From Candidatus Thorarchaeota archaeon (GTDB taxonomy: Archaea > Asgardarchaeota > Thorarchaeia > Thorarchaeales > Thorarchaeaceae), in contig PRDI01000125.1 in the NCBI GenBank assembly GCA_003345595.1, positions 1 through 18,328 on the forward strand: a stretch of DNA of 18,328 bases, read 5' to 3'. Position 1 is the stretch's first letter, and the number at the start of each line of letters is the position of its first letter. Both the position numbers and the translations under genes were made by a program. This document shows positions 3,507-18,328 of the stretch, piece by piece. The notes below the pieces were generated by a model. The model was not told the origin of the DNA and ran no database searches. It was given only the letters and a program-made list of their open reading frames with translations.

Positions 3507-3516
3507 CAAAAGCTGC
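3485..3516. terminator. Inverted repeat between the convergent phoA and mttB-like genes
   Basis: CTTTTGTC (3491-3498) pairs with GACAAAAG (3505-3512), extended by GCAG/CTGC. It spans the 9-nt gap between the convergent stops. Confidence 0.4.
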
Positions 3517-4988
3517 TACACGGCCGGTATCGAGCCCGATGAAAGACCGCGATTCCTGAGAATCATGATCAGCGTAGAGTCCAACGACTCCTTGGACGCG
3601 TCGGGCAGCGGTTTTGACGAATGAGTCCTGAGAGTCTTCTCAACTCTCTCCCTTGCTCTGGCATAGGCATCGCTTGACCCGGCGTCCTTCCAAGTGTGTA
3701 CCGGTTGCCTACTTGTGATTTCAGATGGAAAGAACTGACAATGCCGAAAACTGGTGAGTGTATGGTCTGCCGAGAGGAATTCGCCACTAGGTCCTACCGA
3801 ATCTAGAAGACTCACGATGCTCTCCGTGTTCTCAGACTCAACGCCACGCATCAGCCTTCTTGCCATGCCGCATATCTCGTTGTCAATTACCAGTTTCTCG
3901 AGTGACTGGCAGTTCTCGAAAGCTAGCATGCCCGGACCTGATACTACATTGATTCTTGCCAACGATGCTAGCATCAGGCCAATAGCAGATTCGAAACCAC
4001 TCTGTGCATCTGGTAGCTTCGAATCGCTCAGACCCAAGTAGGCGTGAGTTGGAATTCCGTAGTACTTGCCAATCTGAGAAGCGGCACACTCAGCCATTGC
4101 TGTCTCTATTGCGCCGAGGCAGATTACGCCCTGTTTCATGTCGAAGAGCGCTAGTGATCCACCATAGACAACAGGCGTTCCGGGATTCGCCGTTTCTGCG
4201 ATCACGATGCCAGCGAGTATCTCTGCGTTTGATTGAACAAGAGTGCCAAAGATGGTTACTGGACCTGTCGCACCCATCATCGGAGCAGGGACTATCTCTG
4301 CAGGAATCGAACTGGTAGCACAGTCAATCAGATTCTGAGAGCTCACATCATTCCATGTGAGTGGAGATGTCGGGCAGCAGTCGAAAATGGCGTGGGGCGA
4401 CCGGACTAGTTCTTTTGAGCCTCCCGCTACGGCTTCCAGCATTAGTTTCATGTCGGCTATGCCTTCTTTCGTGAAAGCTCCCGTGACTATCGGTTTGTCT
4501 GAGTGCTTCAGAACCAAATAGAGACGAAACAGATCTGAGATTGACTCCGGCACATCGGATGTGATTACGGCCGTACTGACGGCATCCATGTAGGGAAGTG
4601 CATCCGCAAGTTCAATCAGTCTGACGAGGTCCCTTGATGTTCCTCGACGAATCTCGCCAGTTTCTGAGTCCAGGAAGTCAGAGGCCGAAGAGCCGGGATT
4701 GAATATGACTTCATTGCCTCCAACAGTGAGATAGCGATCTCGCTCACGAGTATAGAGTCTGAATGATTTTGGCACCTTTGAGAGACAAGATTCCACAAGG
4801 TCAGTTGGGAACCGGACTCGGTTTGACTCAATGCCACATCCTGCATTCTCCAATAGCTGGAGCGCTGCACTGTTCTTCACAGCCAGTCCTGTCTTCTCAA
4901 GCAGGTGAAGCGACGCCGAATGTATGCTTTCGATGTCATTCTGAGAAAGAAGTGTAAACTCTCCCATAGTGGACGCCTCAGGATCCAT
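3516..4988 (-). CDS. Trimethylamine methyltransferase (MttB) superfamily protein, non-pyrrolysine type
   Basis: 490 aa with MttB features: IHSASLHLLEKTG, SPL, MGATGPVT..GTL...NAE.LAG, PGTPVVYG, SDSKLPDAQSGFES, GMLAF....SLEKLVIDNEI, GPSGEFL..DHT. No in-frame UAG; Leu sits at the Pyl-equivalent position before SDSK. Confidence 0.9.
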   Translation of the reverse strand: MDPEASTMGEFTLLSQNDIESIHSASLHLLEKTGLAVKNSAALQLLENAGCGIESNRVRFPTDLVESCLSKVPKSFRLYTRERDRYLTVGGNEVIFNPGSSASDFLDSETGEIRRGTSRDLVRLIELADALPYMDAVSTAVITSDVPESISDLFRLYLVLKHSDKPIVTGAFTKEGIADMKLMLEAVAGGSKELVRSPHAIFDCCPTSPLTWNDVSSQNLIDCATSSIPAEIVPAPMMGATGPVTIFGTLVQSNAEILAGIVIAETANPGTPVVYGGSLALFDMKQGVICLGAIETAMAECAASQIGKYYGIPTHAYLGLSDSKLPDAQSGFESAIGLMLASLARINVVSGPGMLAFENCQSLEKLVIDNEICGMARRLMRGVESENTESIVSLLDSVGPSGEFLSADHTLTSFRHCQFFPSEITSRQPVHTWKDAGSSDAYARARERVEKTLRTHSSKPLPDASKESLDSTLIMILRNRGLSSGSIPAV

Positions 4989-6533: not shown

Positions 6534-9302
6534 ATGAAGGGAACCGTTGACATGACGACGGAAGAAACATCAAAGCAGAACAGCAGCGCCGGACAGACGG
6601 AAAGCAAAGTCCCGGCAGCGCTTGTTGTTGGTGGAGGCGTTGCAGGTATGCAGGCTGCACTTGACATCGCCTCTCAGGGCTTCAAGGTCTATCTCCTGGA
6701 ACAGTCACCATCCATTGGCGGCCGCATGGCAATGATCGACAAGACATTTCCTACTCTTGACTGCTCTGCATGCATACTCACGCCACGGCTCAGCGAAACC
6801 TCTCGCAACCCGAACATCGAGCTTCTCACCTATTCCGAAGTCAAGTCGATTACGGGTGAAGCTGGTGACTTCAGAGTCAGAATCCGAAGAAAGGCACGAT
6901 ACGTCAATGAGAAGAAATGTTCGGCATGCGCAGAATGTGTGCCTGTGTGTCCTGTAGAGGTCCCCAATGACTTTGACCAGGGCTTGGGTTTCAGGAAGGC
7001 GATTTACTCGCCGTTCCCACAGTCGACGCCCAACGCATATACGATTGACAAAAAGGGCGAGCCGCCTTGCAGGGCAACATGCCCCGCTCATGTGAATGCT
7101 CAGGGCTTTGTCACTCTCATGAAACATGGGAAGTACGACGAGGCGCTCGAGATTGTGAGAGATGCTATACCATTCCCAGGAGTACTCGGAAGGGTGTGTA
7201 TCAGCTTCTGTGAGGCTGAGTGCGAAAGGGGAACGCTTGACGACAGTATGAGCATCAGAAACCTGCATAGGTTCTTAGCAGATTACGAGCGCGAAAACAA
7301 TCTGGCTAAGCCAGTCGTTCCAAAGATTGACAAGAAGGAGAGAGTGGCAGTCGTCGGAGCAGGACCTGCGGGTATAAGCTGTGCCTACCAGCTTGCAAGA
7401 AAGGGTTACCCTGTGACAGTCTTCGAGGCCAAGCCCGAAGCCGGTGGTCTTCTGAGGTATGCCATTCCCGAGTATCGGCTCCCTCGCAACATCCTAGATG
7501 AAGAAATCCAACGTGTCGTTGATCTAGGAGTGAAGATTAAGGTGAACACTCCCGTCAAGTCGGTGAGGGATCTGCTTGCCAAGGGCTTCAAGGCCGTGTT
7601 TGTGGGTACGGGTGCATCTGTAAGCAACAAGATTGGCCTTCCTGGAGAGGAAATTGTTGGAGTGATTCACTCCGTGGAATTCTTGGAGAAGGTCAACACA
7701 GGTCAAGACGTTAAGATCGGGGAGAAGGTTGCCGTGATTGGAGGAGGAGATGCGGCGATAGACGCAGCACGGGTCGCTGTCCGGCTCGGTGCCTCGGATG
7801 TCACTGTCATCTACCGGCGATCAAACATTGAGATACCTGCTATCCCGAGTGAGGTCGAAGACGCGAAGAGTGAGGGCGTCAAGTTCATGATGTTGACGAA
7901 TCCAATCGAAATTCTGTCCCCTAGAGGCGTTCTCACCGGCATCAGGTGCGTCCGAATGAGACTCGGTGAGCCCGATCACTCGGGCAGAAGTCGGCCCGTA
8001 CCTATAGTCGGGTCCGAGTTCACAATGGCCGTTAACACGCTGATTCTCGGTGTTGGGCAGAGTGCGAATCCTCGGGGAGTCCAGACTGAGTGTGACTGCA
8101 CGGAGTATGCTACAGTAAAAGCTGATCCGGTGACCCTGCAGACCAGCATACCTGGAGTCTTCGCAGGAGGCGATGTTGTCTTAGGTCCTCTCACAGTGGT
8201 GAAAGCGGTCGGGCAGGGCCGACAGGCTGCTGATTCGATAGACATGTACCTGAGAGGAATCCCCTTTGGACACAGTCCACCCGAGAGGCACCGCGTTCAG
8301 TCGTACGAGGTTGACAAGAGAAGAGTCTTGCCTGCAAAGCGTGCAATCATGGCAAAGCAGGGAATTCGGAGCCGCAAGTCAGACTTCTCTGAAGTTGAGC
8401 TTGGATTCAGTGAGGAAACTGCACACTCCGAGGCGGAACGATGCCTGGGATGCGCCGTGTGTTGTGACTGCAACCAGTGCGTGAAGGCTTGCCAGCGCGG
8501 AGCTATTGACCAATCGATGACGGATGAGTCCGCCGAGCTCTCAGTCGGAGCTATCATTATCGCTACTGGCTATCGACTGTTCGACATCACCGCTTATCCA
8601 CAGCTTGGATATGGAAGATACTCGAATGTTATTCACGCTATGGAGTATGAGCGACTGATCAATGCGTCCGGACCGACGAAAGGTCACCTCATACGACTAA
8701 GTGATGGCAGGATCCCGGAGTCCATGGGATTCATTCAGTGCGTTGGGGCGAGAGATGTGAGCAAGGATGTTCCATATTGCAGCCGGGTCTGTTGCATGTA
8801 CGCAATCAAGAACGCGGTCATGGCGAGAGAACATAACCCCGATGCAGATGTCACAATCTACTATGCGGACATAAGGGCCTTCGGGAAAGGATTCGAACAA
8901 TTCTATGATATGGCTCAGACAAGGTTTGGTGTGAAGTTCGTTAGAGGCCGAGTAGCCGAGGTCGCAGAGGACAAGCACACACACAATCTTACCGTCAGAT
9001 ACGAAGACACGGAAACAGGCACGCTTCACGATGTGGAACATGAAATGATAGTCATCAGTCCGGGTATCCAGCCACCCGAAGGGCTTGATGATCTTGCTGT
9101 CGAACTAGGCATGGACCTAGCCGCTGATGGGTATGTTGATGTGGCTGACCAGATCGTGACTCCGGTGGACACAAAGATCGCTGGCGTGTTCGTGTGCGGC
9201 TGCGCAGATGCGCCCAAGGATATTCCCGACTCTGTGTCAGCCGGGAGTGCCGCAGCCATGAGAGCAACCATTATTCTGAACAACATGAGGAAGAAAGTCT
9301 AG
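6534..9302 (+). CDS. hdrA: HdrA-like flavoprotein with inserted GltD/NfnB-like NAD(P)H:flavin oxidoreductase module (HdrL-like); lacks the HdrA N-terminal and C-terminal Fe-S domains
   Basis: GGGVAG FAD motif, KTFPTLDCSAC, CxxCxxCxxxCP, QCVGAR..CSRVCC. Insert of about 460 aa (about 7050-8450) with PCRATCP, GRVC...CE..C, GAGPAG, GGLLRYAIPEYRLP, GGGDAAID, YRRS, GVFAGGD, EAERCLGC. Start may be 6552. Confidence 0.9.
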   Translation: MKGTVDMTTEETSKQNSSAGQTESKVPAALVVGGGVAGMQAALDIASQGFKVYLLEQSPSIGGRMAMIDKTFPTLDCSACILTPRLSETSRNPNIELLTYSEVKSITGEAGDFRVRIRRKARYVNEKKCSACAECVPVCPVEVPNDFDQGLGFRKAIYSPFPQSTPNAYTIDKKGEPPCRATCPAHVNAQGFVTLMKHGKYDEALEIVRDAIPFPGVLGRVCISFCEAECERGTLDDSMSIRNLHRFLADYERENNLAKPVVPKIDKKERVAVVGAGPAGISCAYQLARKGYPVTVFEAKPEAGGLLRYAIPEYRLPRNILDEEIQRVVDLGVKIKVNTPVKSVRDLLAKGFKAVFVGTGASVSNKIGLPGEEIVGVIHSVEFLEKVNTGQDVKIGEKVAVIGGGDAAIDAARVAVRLGASDVTVIYRRSNIEIPAIPSEVEDAKSEGVKFMMLTNPIEILSPRGVLTGIRCVRMRLGEPDHSGRSRPVPIVGSEFTMAVNTLILGVGQSANPRGVQTECDCTEYATVKADPVTLQTSIPGVFAGGDVVLGPLTVVKAVGQGRQAADSIDMYLRGIPFGHSPPERHRVQSYEVDKRRVLPAKRAIMAKQGIRSRKSDFSEVELGFSEETAHSEAERCLGCAVCCDCNQCVKACQRGAIDQSMTDESAELSVGAIIIATGYRLFDITAYPQLGYGRYSNVIHAMEYERLINASGPTKGHLIRLSDGRIPESMGFIQCVGARDVSKDVPYCSRVCCMYAIKNAVMAREHNPDADVTIYYADIRAFGKGFEQFYDMAQTRFGVKFVRGRVAEVAEDKHTHNLTVRYEDTETGTLHDVEHEMIVISPGIQPPEGLDDLAVELGMDLAADGYVDVADQIVTPVDTKIAGVFVCGCADAPKDIPDSVSAGSAAAMRATIILNNMRKKV

Positions 9303-9586: not shown

Positions 9587-10126
9587 ATGTCCGAAACAGC
9601 TCATGAACCCAGAAACAAGATTGCACATGAGCCCAAGTCCACATTCTCTCAAGAGATTGCGGCACAGCCCGGCGGCGAGTATATCAGGAAATGCATTCAG
9701 TGTGGACTATGCACGGCAAGCTGCATGGTAGCCAACTACACTGATAAGTATAGACCCCGCAAGATGGTCCAGAAGATACTCATTGGTGAACGCGAAGAGG
9801 TCCTAAGTTCTGAACTCCCTTGGCTGTGCATGACATGCAGACTCTGCGAAGAGAGATGCCAGGAAGGTGTGAGCCTTGCTGAGATATTTCACGTTGTTAG
9901 AGACATAGCCGCGAGAGAAGGTCATATCCCTAAGGTCTTCAAAGACACCGTCAATTTGGTGATGAAAGACGGTTGGCTGCTAAAGGGTTCCTATACTGAT
10001 TTCGAGCAGGACGACAGAACTAGTCTAGGGCTAGACCCAGATCTTAACTGGAATGAGGAGTTCATGAAGAAGGTCAAGGCTCGCTATTTCGGGAAAGAGC
10101 CTGTGGAAGGAGGCGAACAAGAATGA
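9587..10126 (+). CDS. hdrC: Heterodisulfide reductase subunit C
   Basis: CIQCGLCTASC and WLCMTCRLCEERC (two [4Fe-4S] motifs). ATGA overlap with hdrB. Confidence 0.92.
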   Translation: MSETAHEPRNKIAHEPKSTFSQEIAAQPGGEYIRKCIQCGLCTASCMVANYTDKYRPRKMVQKILIGEREEVLSSELPWLCMTCRLCEERCQEGVSLAEIFHVVRDIAAREGHIPKVFKDTVNLVMKDGWLLKGSYTDFEQDDRTSLGLDPDLNWNEEFMKKVKARYFGKEPVEGGEQE

Positions 10127-10998
10127 AGGAGTTCGTGCTCTATACAGGATGCACCGCCCCAGTCAGGCTGCCCGCATATGAAGCAGCCGTGAAGGCAGTC
10201 TTGGACAAAATGGGTATTAAGCTCATCGACATGAAGGGTGCCAACTGCTGCGGCGCTCAGTATGTGGAGTCCGTCAACCGACATGCATTCGCTGCCATGA
10301 GCGGGCGTATTCTTGCTCTCTCCGAGAAGTATGGTCATGATATTCTTGCTATATGCGGAGCGTGTTCGGGTTCGCTCAAGTGGGTCAAACACGAGCTCGA
10401 TGAAGACTGGAAGCTCAGAGACGAAGTGAATGCCCTTCTGGCTGATGAAGGGCTGGAGTACACGGGCAAGACACAGGTGAAGCACCTACTCCAGATATTC
10501 CACGAGGACATAGGTTATGATGCGATAAAGGCCGCGATTGTGAAACCGTATTCAGGGATTCGTCTAGCTGCCCACTATGGTTGCCATGTTACAAGGCCTT
10601 ACGACATCGTCCGTGTTGATGACCCTGAGAACCCGACGATCATCGACCGGCTAATAGAGATTGCAGGCGGCACACCAGTTGACTATACAGGCAAGACACG
10701 GTGTTGCGGTGGCCCAATGCTTGCGATGGACCAATCGCTTGCCGTCAAGATCGGCTTGGACAAGATTCGCAACATTCGGAATGAGAAAGCGGATGGCATT
10801 GTCACTGCGTGTGTCTTCTGTGATATCCAACTGACACAGGTTCAGTTTGGTGAAGGTGTTGGTGAAAAGGAACGCATCCCGGTACTAACTCTGCCGCAGT
10901 TCCTTGGTCCAGCGCTAGGCATAAGCCCGGCGAAGCTAGGAATCAGTTTCAATAAGATCAGTCCCAGCAAGATTCTTGCGGGCGTCATGGAGGTGTAG
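10123..10998 (+). CDS. hdrB: Heterodisulfide reductase subunit B
   Basis: Two CCG domains: YTGC..NCCG..CGAC and HYGCH..RCCGG..ACVFC. Confidence 0.93.
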   Translation: MKEFVLYTGCTAPVRLPAYEAAVKAVLDKMGIKLIDMKGANCCGAQYVESVNRHAFAAMSGRILALSEKYGHDILAICGACSGSLKWVKHELDEDWKLRDEVNALLADEGLEYTGKTQVKHLLQIFHEDIGYDAIKAAIVKPYSGIRLAAHYGCHVTRPYDIVRVDDPENPTIIDRLIEIAGGTPVDYTGKTRCCGGPMLAMDQSLAVKIGLDKIRNIRNEKADGIVTACVFCDIQLTQVQFGEGVGEKERIPVLTLPQFLGPALGISPAKLGISFNKISPSKILAGVMEV

Positions 10999-11000
10999 CC

Positions 11001-12383
11001 ATGCCAGCAGCAGCAAAGCCCCAATCGAGCCGGAAAGTCGCCGCGAGGTCAAGTCGAACCGCTGCCAAGCCTAAACCAGCTGCTAAGCAGGTGGCACAAG
11101 CTGCCCTTGTGGTCGGCGGTGGTGTGGCAGGTATGCAGGCATCGTTGGACCTGGCCAACCAAGGGTTCAAGGTATACTTGGTTGAGAAGTCACCTTCTAT
11201 TGGCGGCCGGATGGCAATGCTTGACAAGACATTCCCGACACTTGACTGCTCTGCTTGTATTCTCACACCAAGACTGAGCGAAGTAGCTCGTCATCCCAAC
11301 ATCAAACTATTGACATACACGGATCTGGAGGGTGTTATCGGGAAGGTCGGAAACTTCAAGGTCCGTGTCATAAAGCGGGCCAGGTACGTGAAAGAGGAGT
11401 TGTGTGCCGGATGTGGTGCCTGCGCCAAGGAATGCCCGGTTGAAGTCCCAAACGAGTTTGATCAAGGTCTCGGGTTCAGGAAAGCGATCTATGTCGGGTT
11501 TCCTCAGTCAACGCCAAGCACCTACACGATTGACATGGAATCATGCATCAAATGCAAGCGTTGTGAGAGAGCCTGCGAGCGCAAGGCCATAGACCTCGAG
11601 ATGGAAGACGAACGGGTTGAGTTCGATGTTGGCGCGATTATTATCGCGACGGGGTATCGTCTGTTTGATGTGAGAAGGTACTACCGTCTGGGTTACGGAC
11701 GGCTTCCTGACGTCATCAACGCTATGGAGTACGAGCGATTAATCAATGCGGCAGGACCCACACAAGGGCACCTCATCCGCCTAAGTGATGGCAAGACTCC
11801 GCAATCGATTGGTTTCGTGCAGTGTGTTGGTGCCAGAGATGTGAACAAGGGTGTCCCATATTGCAGCAGAGTATGTTGCATGTATGGGATCAAGAACGCA
11901 GTCATGGCCAAAGAACACAATCCCTCTACCGATGTGACCATTTACTATGCGGATATCCGTGCCTTTGGGAAGGGCTTTGAGGAGTTCTACGAAATGGCCC
12001 GCACTCGCTTCGGTGTCAAATTCCTGAGAGGGCGAGCTGCAGAGATAATCGAGGATGTCAGGACCGGCAAACTGCATCTCAGAGCAGAGGATACTGAGAC
12101 TGCTCAGCCGCAGGAGTTTGAACATGACATGGTTGTGATTTGTCCCGGGATTCAGCCTCCTGACGACTTGGACAAGATTGCCGAGAAGCTGGGTGTGGCG
12201 ATGAGTAATGACGGCTACGTCGATGTCGTGCACCGTTACTTCGGCCCTGTCGACACAAAGATGCCAGGGATCTTCGTGTGTGGTTGCGCAGACGGACCCA
12301 AGGATATCCCTGACTCGGTAACAGCAGGAAGTGCAGCAGCGATGAAGGCATCTATTATTCTTGCGAAGGGGGGTGCCGCATGA
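11001..12383 (+). CDS. hdrA: HdrA core subunit (FAD/TrxR-like domain plus inserted 2[4Fe-4S] ferredoxin), lacking the N- and C-terminal domains
   Basis: GGGVAG, KTFPTLDCSAC, CAGCGACAKECP, CIKCKRCERAC, MEYER, QCVGAR..CSRVCCMYGIK, GPKDIPDS. Ends before any C-terminal ferredoxin. Confidence 0.92.
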   Translation: MPAAAKPQSSRKVAARSSRTAAKPKPAAKQVAQAALVVGGGVAGMQASLDLANQGFKVYLVEKSPSIGGRMAMLDKTFPTLDCSACILTPRLSEVARHPNIKLLTYTDLEGVIGKVGNFKVRVIKRARYVKEELCAGCGACAKECPVEVPNEFDQGLGFRKAIYVGFPQSTPSTYTIDMESCIKCKRCERACERKAIDLEMEDERVEFDVGAIIIATGYRLFDVRRYYRLGYGRLPDVINAMEYERLINAAGPTQGHLIRLSDGKTPQSIGFVQCVGARDVNKGVPYCSRVCCMYGIKNAVMAKEHNPSTDVTIYYADIRAFGKGFEEFYEMARTRFGVKFLRGRAAEIIEDVRTGKLHLRAEDTETAQPQEFEHDMVVICPGIQPPDDLDKIAEKLGVAMSNDGYVDVVHRYFGPVDTKMPGIFVCGCADGPKDIPDSVTAGSAAAMKASIILAKGGAA

Positions 12384-14131
12384 TGACCGAGAAAGCAGAG
12401 CCGAGAATTGGAGTCTTCGTTTGCCATTGTGGTCACAACATTGCTGGAGTTGTCGACGTGGCAAAGGTCGTTGAGTCGGCAAAGTCGCTGCCCCATGTGG
12501 TCCTTTCGACAGACCACATGTTCATGTGCTCAGACGCAGGTCAGCAGTTGATTAAGGATAGAATCAAAGAGCAGAAGCTGAACCGTGTTGTGGTGGCGAG
12601 CTGTTCACCCCGAATGCATGAACCGACATTCCGTCGGGTCGTGGAGGATGCAGGTCTAAACCGTTATCTCTTTGATCAGGTAAACATACGGGAGCATGTT
12701 TCATGGTGCCACATGCGTCAGCCAAAGGAGGCTACTGACAAAGCCATTGACCTTGTCAGAATGTCTGTGGCCCGAGCAGCAGAGCTTGAGAGTCTGCCCA
12801 TAAAGTCGGTCAGTGTTACTCCGCGGACACTTGTTGTCGGTGGAGGCATTGCTGGGCTGAGGGCGTCCCTTGACATTGCAGACAGAGGTTTCGAGGCTGT
12901 CTTGGTAGAAAGGATGCCCGAACTCGGAGGCCATGTGAGGAAGTGGACACACCTCTTCCCGGCAGATGAGTCAGGAGAGCAGATAATTGCGCCGCTTGTT
13001 CGACAGGCTGAGCATCACAAGCTTGTCAGAGTCATGAAGGACAGTGAAGTCGTTGAGTTCGGTGGATACATTGGCAACTTCACTGCGAAGATCAAGAACC
13101 ACAAGACTGGTATGGTCAAGGAAGTCGATGTTGGTACTGTGATTGTGGCGACCGGTTTCGAGCCATTCAGGCCATTCGGATATTACGAATATGGTCAACA
13201 CCCTGACATAATCACGCTTGCAGAGCTTCAAGAGATGACGCCTAGGGCGGACCTAATCCGACCCAGCGACGGGAAGAAAGTCAAGAAGCTTGCATTCATT
13301 GGTTGTGTCGGATCTCGAGAGGCGGGCAAACTGGGCCACGAACATTGTTCTCGGCATTGCTGTTCGGCTGTTGCGAAAGCGGCGGCAGACCTGAGAGACA
13401 GGGTCGACGAAGTCGTAATAATGTACCAAGACATCAGGACCTATGGAAGGGGCCACGAAGAGCTGCATCGGCTCGCGAGGTCGAAGCTGGTCATCTACAG
13501 CAAGTTTCCCAAGGAGAAGAAACCGGTTGTGCAGATTGCTAACGGCAGGATAAGGATCACATGGTATGATGTACTGTCAGGTGACAATCTGGAGTACGAG
13601 CCGGACCTGCTAGTGCTGGCCTCAGCGATGATACCTCCTGCGGATGTTGCTGAGACTTCAAAGATGTTCAGTCTCACGAGGAGTGCAGACGGCTTCTTCA
13701 ACCCAGAGCACATCAAGCTTGCACCTTTGACCACACACACCGCTGGAGTCATGATTGCAGGAGCGGCCCAGGCGGCAAAGAACGCATCTGAGTCTGTTGT
13801 CGATGCCAGCGGCGCGGCAGCCAAGGCTGTCGGGCTAATGGCAAGAGGAAACGTGGAGATCGAGTCTACGGTTTCACATGTGATTCCGGAGCTGTGCTCA
13901 TCATGTCACACGTGTGTGACTGCCTGCCCGTATGGAGCAATCGCAATGGACACGAAGAAGAGCCCACCAGTGGCCTTGGTGACAGAGGCCAAGTGCAAGG
14001 GCTGCGGCACATGCGCGGCATCATGCCCGAGTAGTGCGATTATCATGTACCATTCCACGGACGAACAGATCCTGACAATGGTGGAGGCATATCTCTGTCC
14101 CTCGACTCAGACTACGGGAGGTGTCGCTTGA
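12380..14131 (+). CDS. hdrA: HdrA partner subunit (N-terminal Fe-S domain, FAD domain without inserted ferredoxin, C-terminal 2[4Fe-4S])
   Basis: RIGVFVCHCG, FMCS, ASCSPRMHE, NIREH.SW.H, GGGIAG, GCVGSR..CSRHCC, CSSCHTCVTACP, CKGCGTCAASCP. Confidence 0.92.
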   Translation: MMTEKAEPRIGVFVCHCGHNIAGVVDVAKVVESAKSLPHVVLSTDHMFMCSDAGQQLIKDRIKEQKLNRVVVASCSPRMHEPTFRRVVEDAGLNRYLFDQVNIREHVSWCHMRQPKEATDKAIDLVRMSVARAAELESLPIKSVSVTPRTLVVGGGIAGLRASLDIADRGFEAVLVERMPELGGHVRKWTHLFPADESGEQIIAPLVRQAEHHKLVRVMKDSEVVEFGGYIGNFTAKIKNHKTGMVKEVDVGTVIVATGFEPFRPFGYYEYGQHPDIITLAELQEMTPRADLIRPSDGKKVKKLAFIGCVGSREAGKLGHEHCSRHCCSAVAKAAADLRDRVDEVVIMYQDIRTYGRGHEELHRLARSKLVIYSKFPKEKKPVVQIANGRIRITWYDVLSGDNLEYEPDLLVLASAMIPPADVAETSKMFSLTRSADGFFNPEHIKLAPLTTHTAGVMIAGAAQAAKNASESVVDASGAAAKAVGLMARGNVEIESTVSHVIPELCSSCHTCVTACPYGAIAMDTKKSPPVALVTEAKCKGCGTCAASCPSSAIIMYHSTDEQILTMVEAYLCPSTQTTGGVA

Positions 14132-14574
14132 TGTCGACCACCACTGCCGAATCGAGCCCCGCAGTGAACTGGGAGCCCCGAATCATTGCATACTGCTGCA
14201 ACTGGTGTTCGTATGCAGGTGCCGATCTTGCAGGGACAAGCAGGATCCAGTACCCACCGAACGCGAGAATTCTCAGAGTCAACTGCACGGGACGTATCGA
14301 TCCCGAATTCATTCTCGTTGCTCTTGAGATGGGAGCGGATGGCGTGCTTGTGTCAGGATGCCACCCAGGCGACTGTCACTACACTTCTGGGAACTTGAAG
14401 CTCCGTGCCCGATGGGCTCTCATGCAGAAGACGATTGAACAGGCAGGCGTTGACCCCCGAAGAGTACGCCTGCAGTGGGCTAGCGCCTCAGAGGCGCAGA
14501 TTTTCGCAGATGGAGTCAAAGAGCTGACCGAGCAAGTAAGAAAGCTTGGTCCGATAAGGAGTGAATGGAAATGA
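14131..14574 (+). CDS. mvhD: Methyl-viologen-reducing hydrogenase delta subunit, [2Fe-2S] (all-Cys form)
   Basis: CCNWCSYAGAD.AG, RVNCTGR, GADGVLVSGCHPGDCHY, WASASE. TGATG coupling with hdrA'' (TTG 14128 is an alternative start). Confidence 0.95.
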   Translation: MSTTTAESSPAVNWEPRIIAYCCNWCSYAGADLAGTSRIQYPPNARILRVNCTGRIDPEFILVALEMGADGVLVSGCHPGDCHYTSGNLKLRARWALMQKTIEQAGVDPRRVRLQWASASEAQIFADGVKELTEQVRKLGPIRSEWK

Positions 14575-14804
14575 GCGCGTTCCAGAGGTTCTTCAGTCAG
14601 AAGCGCGGAGATGTACGGAAGCAACGACAGGCTATCGAAGAGTCCTTGAAGGCAGGTCCTTCCACTGTCACCAAGATAGCGGAGAAGACTGGTCTGGCCA
14701 AGGACCTGATTGTGTGGAATCTGGTTGGCATGCTGAAGTGGGGCGCCGTGGAAGTCACTGGCGAACAAGACCACGAGCTTGTTTACACACTCAAGGAGGC
14801 GTAA
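14571..14804 (+). CDS. Small winged helix-turn-helix protein
   Basis: 77 aa: IEESLKAGPSTVTKIAEKTGLAKDLIVWNLVGMLKWGAVEVTG...VYTL. SD AGGAGTGA. ATGA overlap with mvhD and TAATG overlap with mvhG. Confidence 0.8.
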   Translation: MSAFQRFFSQKRGDVRKQRQAIEESLKAGPSTVTKIAEKTGLAKDLIVWNLVGMLKWGAVEVTGEQDHELVYTLKEA

Positions 14805-15736
14805 TGTTGGCAAAGCCGGTACCGGTGGCCATGGCGCAGGGGAGTTCTTGCTGGGGTTGCTTCCAGAGTCTAGTAGACATACACCTGAAGCTCGCAGACG
14901 TGCTCCCACTGTTGGACATCAAGTACTGGCAGGCTGTGGTTGACTACAAGCTTAAGGACTTGGAAGGTTATCCCGACAAATCCATTGCAGTCGGTTTCTA
15001 TGAGGGTATGGCTCGCACTGAGGAAGATATTCACCTTCTGAAGGTCATGCGTCAGAAATGCCAGACCCTGATTGCATTTGGCTCATGCTCTTGCTTTGGC
15101 GGCATTCCCGGCATGGCCAACTTCTCGGACATCGAGCAGTGCTACGACGTCAAGTTCAGACACAACAAGACAGTCAACGGCGGTAGTGTACCATCGGTCA
15201 ACGTCCCAGCAATCACAGATGTTGTGAAACCTAATACCGACTATGCAGCCTTCGACGTCTATCTGCCGGGATGTCCCCCAACATCGAAGCTCATCCTGAC
15301 TGCTGTGACTGCATTGCTTGAGGGTAAACCACTCGAGTTACCTCCCTACACCGTATGTCATTACTGTAAACGTGAGAAGAAAGAAACGCCCATCTCAGAG
15401 ATCCTTCGACCTTATGTAGGCAAGGCTGATGTCCAGAGATGCCTCCTTGAACAGGGCTACATCTGTATGGGCCCATCAACGTGGGGTCTCTGTGAGGGGC
15501 AGTGTGTCAATAAGGGTGCGACCTGCAGAGGTTGTTTTGGTCCTTCGCCGCCCATAATGAAGGATCACGGTGCCGCTACCATATCGATGCTGGGGACATA
15601 TGCTCCGATTGACCCGGACAAGCTCATCGCACAAGTAAAGGACCCACTGGGTACGTTCTACAGATTCGATTACCCTACAAGTCATCTGGGCCGCATTCGT
15701 ATCAAGCACGAGGAAGCTGAGAGGAGGCGCAAGTAG
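14804..15736 (+). CDS. mvhG: [NiFe] group 3c hydrogenase small subunit
   Basis: True start is ATG 14804 after AAGGAGG; the ORF-track extension from 14561 overlaps the wHTH gene. SCWGC, GSCSCFGGIPG, PGCPP, VCHYC, CLLEQGYICMGP, CRGCFGP. Confidence 0.93.
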   Translation: MLAKPVPVAMAQGSSCWGCFQSLVDIHLKLADVLPLLDIKYWQAVVDYKLKDLEGYPDKSIAVGFYEGMARTEEDIHLLKVMRQKCQTLIAFGSCSCFGGIPGMANFSDIEQCYDVKFRHNKTVNGGSVPSVNVPAITDVVKPNTDYAAFDVYLPGCPPTSKLILTAVTALLEGKPLELPPYTVCHYCKREKKETPISEILRPYVGKADVQRCLLEQGYICMGPSTWGLCEGQCVNKGATCRGCFGPSPPIMKDHGAATISMLGTYAPIDPDKLIAQVKDPLGTFYRFDYPTSHLGRIRIKHEEAERRRK

Positions 15737-15737
15737 A

Positions 15738-17054
15738 GTGCCGGAGGAGAAGACAATCCACATCGACCCAGTGACTCGTCTTGAGGGTCATGGTGCTCTG
15801 ACCATCAAGCTGGGCCCTGGAAACAAGGTGAAGGATGTTCAGTTCAACATTGGGAGCACGCGCTTTTTCGAGCAGTTTCTGGTGGGCAGGCCCATGGAAG
15901 AGGTCCCAAGGATTGCCCCAAGAATCTGCGGCATCTGTCCTGAGCCTCACCATCTTGCATCAGTGAAAGCTGTCGAGGCCGCGTGGGACGTGAAACCACC
16001 TCCAGCCGCCATAAAGCTGAGGCGTCTACTTATTGAGGCGAAGCAGCTGTCATCACATGCTATCCATTTCTACGCATTAGCTGCGCCTGACTTCGTGTTC
16101 GGACCATTTGCTGACCCAAGTGTGAGAAATGTGGCCGGTGTCCTGAAACACCTGCCCGATGTTGCAGTACAAGCAATCAAGCTCATGGAGTTTGGTCAGG
16201 AACTGTGCAGAGACATTGCAGCTAAGGCAATCCATCCCGCGACCGCTATCCCGGGTGGGATGTTGAACTCACTCAAGGAGGAAGAACGCGACAAGTGGCT
16301 CAAAGCTGTTCCTGCCATGCTTGAGAACGTGCAGAAGACCGTCGACCTTGCAAAGAAGGTCGTCAACCTCTACTTCGACGTTATCACAAAAGTAGCTGTG
16401 ACCCCAACTTACTATGTGGGTCTGAGCAACAAGGGTGTGCTCGACATCTATGATGGTACCATCCACGTTATGGATCCTAGCGGGAAGATGGTTGCTGACT
16501 TCGAGCCTAAGGATTACACCAAATACTGGGGCGAGTATGTGAGCGATCATTCATATGCGACCCACATCTACTACAAACTGGCAGGATATCCGGCAGGTAT
16601 CTGGCGGGCCAACACGCTCGCACGATGCAACATCGCTGATAGAATGGCCACTCCCCTTGCTGACGCTGCCCTAAAGGAGATGCGTGCATTAATTGGTCGG
16701 CCATCGCACCACACATTTGGCTACCACTACGCAAGGATAGTTGAGATGGTTCAGGCTGCTGAGTCGATCAAGAAACTCCTTGAAGACCCCGATATAGTAA
16801 GCACGGACGTGAAACTATCGGACGTGCAGCCAAAGGCTGGAGAAGGAGTCGGGGTGGTAGAGGCACCGAGAGGCACATGCCTCCACAATTACGAATGTGA
16901 CGACCAGGGGATAGTCACCAAGGCTAACATCATAGTTGCCACAAACCACAACATCGGCGGTATTGAGAAATCTCTCACGGATGCTGCCAAGATGATCTTC
17001 GAACAGGACGGCCTCAAGAAGCTGAAGCTGCCAGAACCCCTAGTGAAGACCTAG
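15738..17054 (+). CDS. vhuA: [NiFe(Se)] group 3c hydrogenase large subunit, split VhuA-type lacking the C-terminal L2 motif
   Basis: DPVTRLEGHG, L1 motif RICGICPEPH, EAPRG..LH.Y, ANIIVATNHN. Ends at TAG with no DPCxxC. Confidence 0.93.
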   Translation: MPEEKTIHIDPVTRLEGHGALTIKLGPGNKVKDVQFNIGSTRFFEQFLVGRPMEEVPRIAPRICGICPEPHHLASVKAVEAAWDVKPPPAAIKLRRLLIEAKQLSSHAIHFYALAAPDFVFGPFADPSVRNVAGVLKHLPDVAVQAIKLMEFGQELCRDIAAKAIHPATAIPGGMLNSLKEEERDKWLKAVPAMLENVQKTVDLAKKVVNLYFDVITKVAVTPTYYVGLSNKGVLDIYDGTIHVMDPSGKMVADFEPKDYTKYWGEYVSDHSYATHIYYKLAGYPAGIWRANTLARCNIADRMATPLADAALKEMRALIGRPSHHTFGYHYARIVEMVQAAESIKKLLEDPDIVSTDVKLSDVQPKAGEGVGVVEAPRGTCLHNYECDDQGIVTKANIIVATNHNIGGIEKSLTDAAKMIFEQDGLKKLKLPEPLVKT

Positions 17055-17070
17055 ACAGGAACGAATGAAC

Positions 17071-17223
17071 ATGACAGACGAAATACCTGAAGGCGTACTC
17101 AATCTCCTTGAGATGGTTGTACGCTGCTATGACTGCTGACTCTCTTGCGCCGCTCACATCGTCATTGTAGACGAAGAGGGACGCGAGATAGTCAGCAAGG
17201 AGCTCGTGACCAGCAGCGAATGA
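17071..17223 (+). CDS. vhuU: VhuU-type selenoprotein small hydrogenase subunit (Sec codon TGA 17137-17139; absent from ORF track)
   Basis: Manual translation: MTDEIPEGVLNLLEMVVRCYDC(U)LSCAAHIVIVDEEGREIVSKELVTSSE*. In-frame ATG also at 17065. Matches the L2 motif E...R.YDP[C/U]xxCxxH plus a cleavable tail, and directly follows L2-less vhuA. Confidence 0.93.
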
Positions 17224-17281
17224 AGGCGCGGTCGCAAAGATCTGAACTGCGCTCGACGACCCTGCGAGGGTTGCTGGTCAT
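17206..17281 (+). promoter_or_regulatory. Eukaryote-like SECIS element
   Basis: Helix I GUGACCAGCAGC (17206-17217) with GUUGCUGGUCAU (17270-17281). Core AUGAA (17220-17224) with CGAC (17254-17257), giving tandem G.A pairs. Helix II GGCGCGGU (17225-17232) with ACUGCGCU (17246-17253). Apical AAA at 17236-17238. Confidence 0.85.
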
Positions 17282-17440
17282 GCTCCTTCTTCCGCTTCTG
17301 CTTGGCAGCTAGCTACGCGTGTAGTCTGTCATTTCAAAGGTCGGTCCGTGGAAGCCGGGACTTCCGGGATTATGTCCAAGGCTAGGTGGCCGAATTCCTT
17401 GTTCGCATTCGGCAGGTGTCGAGTTGAGATACGGCAATCT

Positions 17441-17454
17441 GGAAAGTATATATG
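17441..17454 (+). promoter_or_regulatory. BRE plus TATA box (GGAAAG-TATATA) for the LinD-like gene
   Basis: Purine-rich BRE followed by TATATA. GGTGA SD at 17501-17505 precedes ATG 17510. Confidence 0.6.
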
Positions 17455-17509
17455 TCACGCGTGCCGCGAGCATTGAAAGCCCTGAAACTCTGCCGACTTG
17501 GGTGATAGA

Positions 17510-18328
17510 ATGAGTAGCTACCTCAAGACCAACAAATTCATTGTGGCAGTCCTAGTTCTCTCCGTGATTATCGGAGGACTCACTTTCAGCAATCTGCCCG
17601 GACCAGCGACGCCCACGAGTGTCCAGACCGTTAATGGTGTGACCTACAACTTCGCAGACTACAACTCCTTGACCCATGAACAACTCGCCATTTTCAACTA
17701 CTTGAACACAATCGTCAGCCATGAGTATCAGCCATATGGGTCGTGGACTGGTTGGAATGCCGAGAACTTTGTAGGACTGCACCATTACGCCTTGGCGTTC
17801 ATGGCTTACGCTACTGCTAGCTTTTTTGAGTCAACTCCTGGATATCGCAGTGACTACTACAGGAATTTCGCTTATGACCTGATAGAGAAGATGAATACGA
17901 CCGAGGCACTGTGGCATAATGACTCTGTCGAGTTCAGAGAATGGGCTAATCCCGCCTATGGCTTCACTCAGTATCACTATCCAAACGCCACGAACTCTTC
18001 TGATCTGTATGTTGGCGGATTTCGTGGCCCGGCAAACATCATGTGGACAGGCCACTATGCTCTCATGATGGAGCTCTACGAGAGGAACTTCCTCCTGGGG
18101 AATATGACTAGCGAGATAGACTGGTTCGTCAGAGACTGGAACAACACCCTGACAACCGACGGATATGGGAACGCAAAGGAAGGAGGCATATTCGGTGTTG
18201 GCCTCATTCCATGTGAACCGTACATCGTGTTTGTCCAGTGCAACAGCATCCCTATCTATGCAACAGAGCTCTATGACAATCTCTATGGCACCCACTACAT
18301 GGAGGGTGGCATGTGGGACTATGGCCTC
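17510..18328 (+). CDS. Secreted or membrane-anchored linalool dehydratase/isomerase (LinD/Ldi)-like protein, truncated by window edge (absent from ORF track)
   Basis: 273 open codons. N-terminal hydrophobic FIVAVLVLSVIIGGLTF. Motifs HYALAFMAYATAS, NIMWTGH, CEPYIVFVQCNS and YDNLYGTHY resemble, as I recall them, Castellaniella LinD KYSIAFYAYGLAS, NIMYKGH, CEPDNYFVQCNS and YDRLHGTDY. Confidence 0.82.
   Translation, partial: MSSYLKTNKFIVAVLVLSVIIGGLTFSNLPGPATPTSVQTVNGVTYNFADYNSLTHEQLAIFNYLNTIVSHEYQPYGSWTGWNAENFVGLHHYALAFMAYATASFFESTPGYRSDYYRNFAYDLIEKMNTTEALWHNDSVEFREWANPAYGFTQYHYPNATNSSDLYVGGFRGPANIMWTGHYALMMELYERNFLLGNMTSEIDWFVRDWNNTLTTDGYGNAKEGGIFGVGLIPCEPYIVFVQCNSIPIYATELYDNLYGTHYMEGGMWDYGL

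Follow-up and report, generated by a model that had tools for sequence, protein, structure and literature searches.

In the periplasmic [NiFeSe] hydrogenases HysAB, which belong to group 1, selenocysteine (Sec) replaces the terminal Ni-ligand cysteine of the L2 motif, and the large subunit is unsplit. The Vhu hydrogenase of Methanococcus, as seen in the M. maripaludis Hdr-Vhu-Fwd super-assembly (PDB 9sfi; PMC13518236), has a split large subunit that consists of a 418-aa VhuA and a small Sec peptide, VhuU (chain M). In VhuU, Sec is the first L2 ligand and is followed by xxCxxH, and the partners of the enzyme are VhuG, VhuD and HdrABC. Among Asgard archaea, Mariotti et al. (2016; PMC4989117) described VhuU, VhuD, HdrA, SPS and PrxL as selenoproteins of Lokiarchaeota, together with an RNA element that they termed 'lokiSECIS'. 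Huang et al. (2024; PMC11227280) surveyed more than 400 Asgard genomes and found the FrhA/MvhA/VhuU family in 68% of the Sec-users; the thorarchaeial frhA genes had a SECIS loop that starts with G[U/G]AAA and a UGA stop that overlaps the AUGA of the element. VhuU of Atabeyarchaeia has also been published, and a 2026 review covers the Asgard VhuU selenoproteins.

The locus described here lies in an 18,328-nucleotide stretch of Thorarchaeota DNA, which is referred to below as the window. Judged by comparison of its sequence with the systems above, a short gene in this window is real, and its predicted product is a Sec-containing L2 peptide that completes a split [NiFeSe] hydrogenase (Table 1). 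The vhuA ORF encodes 438 aa and ends in TAG (17052-17054). It contains the L1 motif RICGIC inside PRICGICPEPHH, with the L1 cysteine codons at 15927-15929 and 15936-15938, and is without any L2 (DPCxxCxxH) motif. Two ATG codons follow at 17065 and 17071, 10 nt and 16 nt past the end of vhuA at 17054. Because the VhuU peptides of relatives begin at a Met that matches 17071 (MT[DE]EIPEG), this codon is the likelier start of vhuU, with 17065 as the alternative. Translated on the plus strand with TGA as U, positions 17071-17223 give MTDEIPEGVLNLLEMVVRCYDC-U-LSCAAH plus a 21-aa tail; the frame is made up of MNMTDEIPEGVLNLLEMVVRCYDC (ending in VVRCYDC), the TGA at 17137-17139, LSCAAH, 21 codons at 17158-17220 and a TGA stop at 17221-17223. 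From 17071, the product would be a precursor of 50 aa, from which a mature peptide of 29 aa is expected. A preliminary description of this DNA had reported a large subunit with RICGIC and no L2, followed after 10-16 nt by a short ORF, and both the sequence and its translation agree with that report.

Table 1. Features of the hdr-vhu cluster and of the predicted selenocysteine site in the window
Feature	Position	Strand	Evidence
HdrC-like iron-sulfur subunit	9587..10126	+	Pfam 4Fe-4S dicluster domains
HdrB, two CCG domains	10123..10998	+	PF02754, E 3.9e-26
HdrA-like flavoprotein, HdrA2 model positions 126-563, no in-frame TGA	11001..12383	+	NF040770, 598 bits
HdrA (N-terminal domain, FAD domain, C-terminal ferredoxin), Cys form, no in-frame TGA	12380..14131	+	NF040770, 547 bits
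MvhD/VhuD, Cys form	14128..14574	+	PF02662, E 2.7e-52; NF045873 VhuD, 133 bits
Hydrogenase small subunit MvhG/VhuG	14561..15736	+	PF01058; NF045875 VhuG, 211 bits
vhuA, large subunit, L1 present, L2 absent	15738..17054	+	NF041785 VhuA, 502 bits; PDB 9sfi_g, 442 bits
vhuU, 50-codon precursor of the predicted Sec-containing L2 peptide	17071..17223	+	NF041786 VhuU, E 1.7e-16; conservation
UGA predicted to be read as Sec, first L2 ligand position (terminal Ni ligand)	17137..17139	+	TGA in 42/42 loci; aligns with Cys of DPCxxC and Sec of 9sfi_M
Second L2 ligand Cys (17146-17148) and His (17155-17157) before the expected cleavage	17146..17157	+	FrhA/MvhA L2 alignment
21-aa C-terminal extension, presumed removed by maturation endopeptidase	17158..17220	+	FrhA precursor tail homology; purifying selection
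Predicted eukaryote-like (type I) SECIS	17220..17256	+	RNAalifold and pair counts, 41 loci
Second small conserved hairpin, ACCC-UGCGA-GGGU	17259..17271	+	Directly 3' of SECIS; 94.5% of cells paired

VhuA and VhuU are together collinear with an ordinary hydrogenase large subunit, since the L2 columns fall beyond the end of VhuA, in VhuU. Residues 7-421 of VhuA match positions 4-417 of 418 both in the NCBIfam model NF041785 and in the VhuA of M. maripaludis, the best solved relative (PDB 9sfi_g). The MvhA of M. thermolithotrophicus is the next-best PDB match (VhuA 7-411 against MvhA 4-408), and four more distant, unsplit homologues (~40% identity) have both L2 Cys columns past the VhuA end. The VhuU peptide, for its part, aligns with the C-terminal residues of unsplit MvhA/FrhA (RAYDPCLSCATH; MvhA 426-453), with the UGA column at the Cys of DPCLSCATH in the Cys-type enzymes. 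It also aligns with the 27-aa VhuU chain 9sfi_M, in which X (Sec) stands opposite the UGA. In FrhA, the mature chain (4ci0_A) is 386 aa long and stops at the aligned His, and the precursor (3zfs_A) has 405 aa; the 21-aa VhuU tail is homologous to the precursor extension that is absent from the mature chain. The tail is therefore presumed, on the strength of this homology, to be removed after the His by a maturation endopeptidase, and a gene of the HycI family of endopeptidases is present in the same genome (G000:C124:4692-5012). In our search, homology to HysAB of Desulfovibrio and Desulfomicrobium (PDB 2wpn, 1cc1) is confined to the N-terminal L1 region, at ~102 bits over only ~125 residues.

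Of the 18,950 models searched, the NCBIfam model NF041786 (VhuU) was the best for the peptide, at 59.8 bits, a score below the 70-bit equivalog cut-off. The VhuA, VhuG and VhuD matches are likewise under their NCBIfam equivalog cut-offs, and we infer that the 70-bit threshold of NF041786 is tuned to Methanococcales. A Pfam search gave no match for the VhuU peptide and, in the large subunit, recognised no more than the N-terminal part. The vhuU ORF is missing from the table-11 ORF list, and under table 11 it ends after 22-24 codons. The suggestion of the preliminary description that standard annotation would miss the gene is plausible, given its absence from that list and the shortfall of 59.8 against 70 bits.

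The genes around vhuU are arranged in the order hdrC-hdrB-hdrA-hdrA-mvhD-mvhG-vhuA-vhuU. The features of a group 3c enzyme are present, with large and small subunits and MvhD beside hdrABC, and the closest homologues are Mvh/Vhu. A [NiFeSe] group 3c hydrogenase wired to HdrABC, as had been proposed for this DNA, is thus the probable product of the cluster, in which Vhu-type genes adjoin HdrCBA and MvhD. The locus shares with Methanococcus the split large subunit, the place of Sec in L2 and the set of partner proteins. However, the motif is RAYDPU there and RCYDCU here, the host here is not a methanogen, and the VhuD and HdrA encoded in this cluster have Cys. HdrA and MvhD are often selenoproteins in Asgard archaea; here neither of them carries Sec. 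There are two HdrA-type genes, overlapping by ATGA (11001-14131, plus strand), where one is expected. Compared with the VhuG model, which matches from residue 84, the small subunit (14561-15736) is extended by ~85 aa at its N terminus. Further upstream, a 922-aa protein is encoded at 6534-9302 (plus strand). At its ends it shares 64-69% identity with the HdrA-like gene at 11001-12383, and its middle is a GltD/NfnB-like module (Fer4_20 and Pyr_redox_2). A HdrA fusion linked to NAD(P)H, heading the hdr-vhu cluster, is a possible reading of this protein. The window also contains an MttB-superfamily methyltransferase gene (3516-4988, minus strand) with no in-frame TAG. On another contig of the genome (G000:C106:12486-12593), aragorn, run so as to allow introns, predicts a tRNA-Pyl(cta) that contains an intron; this may be a false call.

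We also examined the region around the vhuU stop codon, where the predicted RNA element at 17220-17256, 83 nt downstream of the Sec UGA, is a eukaryote-like SECIS. Its core consists of AUGA at 17220-17223, which includes the vhuU stop codon, and of GA at 17255-17256. The stem pairs 17225-17232 with 17246-17253 (8 bp, or 9 positions including an A·C mismatch). The 13-nt apical loop CGCAAAGAUCUGA at 17233-17245 is A-rich and begins CGCAAA. Across 41 loci the ATGA is invariant, as is the A of the 3' GA, the G of which is kept in at least 90%; the vhuU stop is TGA in every locus, within an invariant ATGAA. In these 41 loci compensatory changes occur at all eight stem pairs, and pairing holds in 94% of cells. 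The covariation score was reached in none of 500 shuffles, and sliding the partner strand by one column halved the pairing. A covariance model built from 27 loci (R1) recovered, at 32.9 bits, the element of a second vhuU copy that lay outside its training set. In its own genome, the convincing matches of R1 were the 17220-17256 element and that of this paralogue on contig C16 only; two weak matches (C121:2564-2614 and C96:2038-2087, E 0.2-0.8) had no sensible upstream frame and were rejected. R1 did not pick up the SECIS of SelD in this genome; in selD genes another form of the element, type II, predominates (Huang 2024, PMC11227280). An Rfam scan of 14000-18328 with E up to 10 returned no SECIS or other credible family. 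In the small hairpin that follows the SECIS (17259-17271), two of the four pairs, the closing pair among them, have compensatory changes, and the loop is GCAA in most relatives.

The element closely resembles those already described in Asgard archaea. It fits the type I model of Huang et al. (2024; PMC11227280) in its core, in its stem (7-15 bp with at most 2 mismatches allowed) and in its loop (8-20 nt with an A-rich start). The family, the clade and the eSECIS-like type I model (core GA_[G/A]A) are the same as in that study, and from its Thorarchaeia the present locus differs in nothing substantive, the loop starting here with G-C-AAA. Methanococcal SECIS elements are of the GAA_A type (PMC11227280), whereas the one here is of the eukaryote-like kind. 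The lokiSECIS (PMC4989117) likewise combines AUGA, an A-rich apical loop and GA/AA, on a stem of ~9 bp. Loki VhuU is, as here, a peptide of ~50 aa with one Sec encoded downstream of vhuA, and in Loki VhuU.1 the AUGA also doubles as the UGA stop (PMC4989117). In contrast to the Loki form, which has an 11-nt loop beginning AAAAA, the SECIS of this locus is rich in GC, and its loop of 13 nt begins CGCAAA. Furthermore, the 3' core is GA here and AA in Loki VhuU, and the host class is Thorarchaeia. The SECIS had gone unnoticed in the preliminary description. The recoding proposed there for the UGA is upheld by the conserved TGA, the purifying selection downstream of it (see below) and this covarying element, all of which point to Sec.

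The genome to which the window belongs is a 2.73-Mb MAG in 129 contigs, 83% complete and with ~18 tRNAs assembled. The genes for SepSecS (427 bits) and SelB (288 bits) are adjacent on contig C89 and score above the cut-offs. SelD (200 bits; G000:C78:1668-2477) is above its cut-off as well and is itself a selenoprotein, with an in-frame TGA of its own in a GUSCK motif. PSTK is represented by a fragment of 129 positions at the end of a contig (C16, 24270-24659), with a score below the cut-off. No tRNA-Sec was found in this MAG by aragorn with and without introns, by Rfam RF01852 or by blastn with the tRNA-Sec of relatives, an absence that is uninformative because only ~18 tRNAs are present in an 83%-complete MAG. 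Two odd aragorn calls are intron-containing tRNA-Gln and tRNA-Arg, not tRNA-Sec. A clear tRNA-Sec(UCA) is found in the close relatives G400 and G401, one of the genomes being a closed Thorarchaeota chromosome. The search for Sec machinery that had been suggested for this organism therefore located SepSecS, SelB and SelD, and PSTK in part. With at least three machinery genes and one selenoprotein gene, the genome fits the definition of the Sec trait used by Huang et al. (2024; PMC11227280). A second MvhD-MvhG-VhuA-VhuU cluster is present in the same genome (G000:C16:12710-15583), on the contig that ends in the PSTK fragment. Compared with the genes at 15738-17223, its VhuA is 63.5% and its VhuU 92% identical; the TGA is kept, and this vhuU copy has a SECIS of its own at 15540-15583 (R1, 32.9 bits). 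Relatives also have two clades of vhu cluster, with loci at ~80% and ~65% identity.

A search with VhuA identified 56 related loci, nearly all in Thorarchaeota MAGs, with Helarchaeota and Atabeyarchaeia further out. In the closest relative (L046, CAVSBO010000003.1), a 1-nt length difference breaks the vhuA frame after 101 codons and is probably an assembly indel. These loci bear on whether the UGA at 17137-17139 might be an ordinary stop, the large subunit being truncated and decaying and the downstream frame untranslated. Such a reading would account for the short table-11 ORF, its absence from the ORF list and the Pfam coverage of the N-terminal part of the large subunit only. However, in all 42 motif-bearing loci (from Thorarchaeota, Helarchaeota and Atabeyarchaeia) the peptide follows the large subunit and has TGA at the Sec column, and the frame is conserved as well, a pattern that chance could not plausibly produce. 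In the 31 loci that share this tail length, frame 0 is free of stops for 27 codons past the TGA, and frames 1 and 2 contain stops in 30 and 27 of them, respectively. In frame, pN/pS is 0.17 upstream of the TGA and 0.32 downstream; out of frame it is 1.2-2.2, and 1.2-1.4 for the part past the TGA. By this measure purifying selection acts on the frame that follows the TGA, and such a pattern is incompatible with a decaying pseudogene. The arrangement is also phylum-wide: when 400 genomes of the phylum were searched in six frames, 301 gave a match to the VhuU peptide, and among the ~150 matches listed nearly all have exactly one internal TGA. Moreover, the SECIS covaries, Sec machinery is present, and the working enzyme of M. 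maripaludis has the same split, so that an ordinary stop is highly improbable. It could be argued instead that TGC or TGT was turned into TGA by a mistake in sequencing or assembly, a proposal in favour of which nothing was found and to which we attach almost no weight. The 42 assemblies with TGA are independent. A Cys codon is tolerated just before the TGA in every one of them (TGC in 41, TGT in one) and yet never occurs at the TGA column itself. The question of TGC or TGT at 17137-17139 in reads had been raised in the preliminary description; contigs of the DNA runs X1 and X3 and of the RNA-library run X6, three public runs of at least two studies, span these positions unchanged and keep TGA. 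Runs X1 and X2 have contigs over only parts of the stretch, and the gaps between these are not evidence. Contigs of X6, a metatranscriptomic library, extend over 17038-17188 with no difference and over 17193-17343 with one difference. They are compatible with expression of vhuU but are no proof of transcription, because DNA carry-over is possible.

One in-frame UGA alone cannot distinguish site-specific Sec from a codon that is sense throughout the genome (e.g. Trp or Gly). Elsewhere in the genome, TGA is the commonest ordinary stop, ending 538 of 1122 long ORFs, and for this reason the recoding appears to be site-specific. It also ends six of the 11 genes nearby, all of which are free of internal TGA, and it ends vhuU itself. 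In addition, the UGA aligns with a metal-ligand Cys or Sec, and SECIS, SelB and SepSecS are all present; the chance of genome-wide reassignment is close to negligible. It is also conceivable that the site is recoded but that, under Se limitation, a substantial share of the product has Cys or no peptide is made, the enzyme being facultatively [NiFeSe]. A Cys variant does occur in one Asgard genome. When the UGA/Cys column was compared across Asgard genomes, as had been recommended, TGA was found not only in the 42 loci above but also in 42 of 43 further Asgard copies, which include AT-rich genomes of another family; these 42 read DCU and the remaining one reads DCC. This sole Cys variant (L114; G199:C96:5340-5680) has DCCLSCSAH, a TAA stop and no AUGA hairpin downstream. 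As a Cys variant without the hairpin, it serves as a natural control that links the SECIS to the Sec codon. The facultative reading may also draw on the second Vhu cluster of the genome, which is likewise of the Sec and not the Cys type; no additional Cys-type isoenzyme like the methanococcal Vhc was found. However, there is no evidence of Cys misincorporation here, and TGA is kept almost universally, which speaks for Sec as the residue under selection. Facultative use of Cys is therefore unlikely, albeit less so than the other alternatives.

It is very probable, in our judgement, that 17071-17223 is vhuU, a gene for the separated C-terminal segment that belongs to the large subunit of a group 3c [NiFeSe] hydrogenase, cytoplasmic and of the Vhu/Mvh type, with SECIS-directed Sec. 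In the mechanism that we propose, the SECIS would direct SelB/EFSec with Sec-tRNA(Sec) to the first UGA, which would be read as selenocysteine, and the second UGA would terminate translation because it lies inside the SECIS core. The 50-aa precursor would join VhuA, which would supply the two L1 cysteines. A Ni-Fe centre would be inserted, with Sec25 (17137-17139) and Cys28 (17146-17148) as the remaining ligands, and a HycI-type endopeptidase would then cut the 21-aa tail after His31 (17155-17157). Together with VhuG and MvhD, the completed large subunit would take electrons from H2 and hand them on to HdrABC, the flavin-based bifurcating module encoded alongside.

The Asgard peptides also differ from VhuU of M. 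maripaludis in the residues that precede Sec. The pattern R-C-(Y/F)-D-C-U-x-x-C is found in all 84 Asgard Sec-type VhuU examined, from Thorarchaeota, Helarchaeota, Atabeyarchaeia and the AT-rich, Loki-like genomes, and RCY/FDCULSCAAH is common to the present vhuU and the AT-rich Asgard copies examined. The two extra cysteines, at -4 and -1 of Sec, form a CxxC (17125-17139), and both are also carried by the sole Cys variant. In M. maripaludis VhuU (9sfi_M) and in every aligned Cys-type Mvh/Frh, this stretch is R-A-Y-D-P-[U/C]. When candidate partner cysteines in VhuA were considered, only Cys297 stood out; it is present in 86% of split-type VhuA and is L, V or A in the unsplit forms. The Cys-Sec dyad of VhuU recalls GCUG, the redox centre of animal thioredoxin reductase. 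The Asgard Vhu might have a built-in thiol/selenol switch in the form of a reversible selenenylsulfide or disulfide. We consider this unlikely, but if true, the Ni-Fe-Se site could be gated by the switch or shielded by it, for instance from oxygen. A limited search of the main text of each of the two papers (Mariotti 2016; Huang 2024) brought up no mention of CxxC-U-xxC.

The vhuU gene, the type of its SECIS, the overlap with the stop codon and the occurrence in Thorarchaeia have all been published between 2016 and 2026. The locus is therefore a correct re-discovery and answers no open question. The interpretation given in the preliminary description is supported, but it was made in ignorance of the published VhuU selenoproteins of Asgard archaea, including Thorarchaeia. 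What the locus adds is one more well-documented eukaryote-like SECIS in which the core UGA is the gene's own stop. The CxxC-U-xxC variant is a small residual novelty that might merit a biochemist's attention. For this Thorarchaeote, the H2-oxidising module looks broken unless vhuU is annotated by hand, and the Hdr-linked hydrogen metabolism of the organism would depend on selenium.
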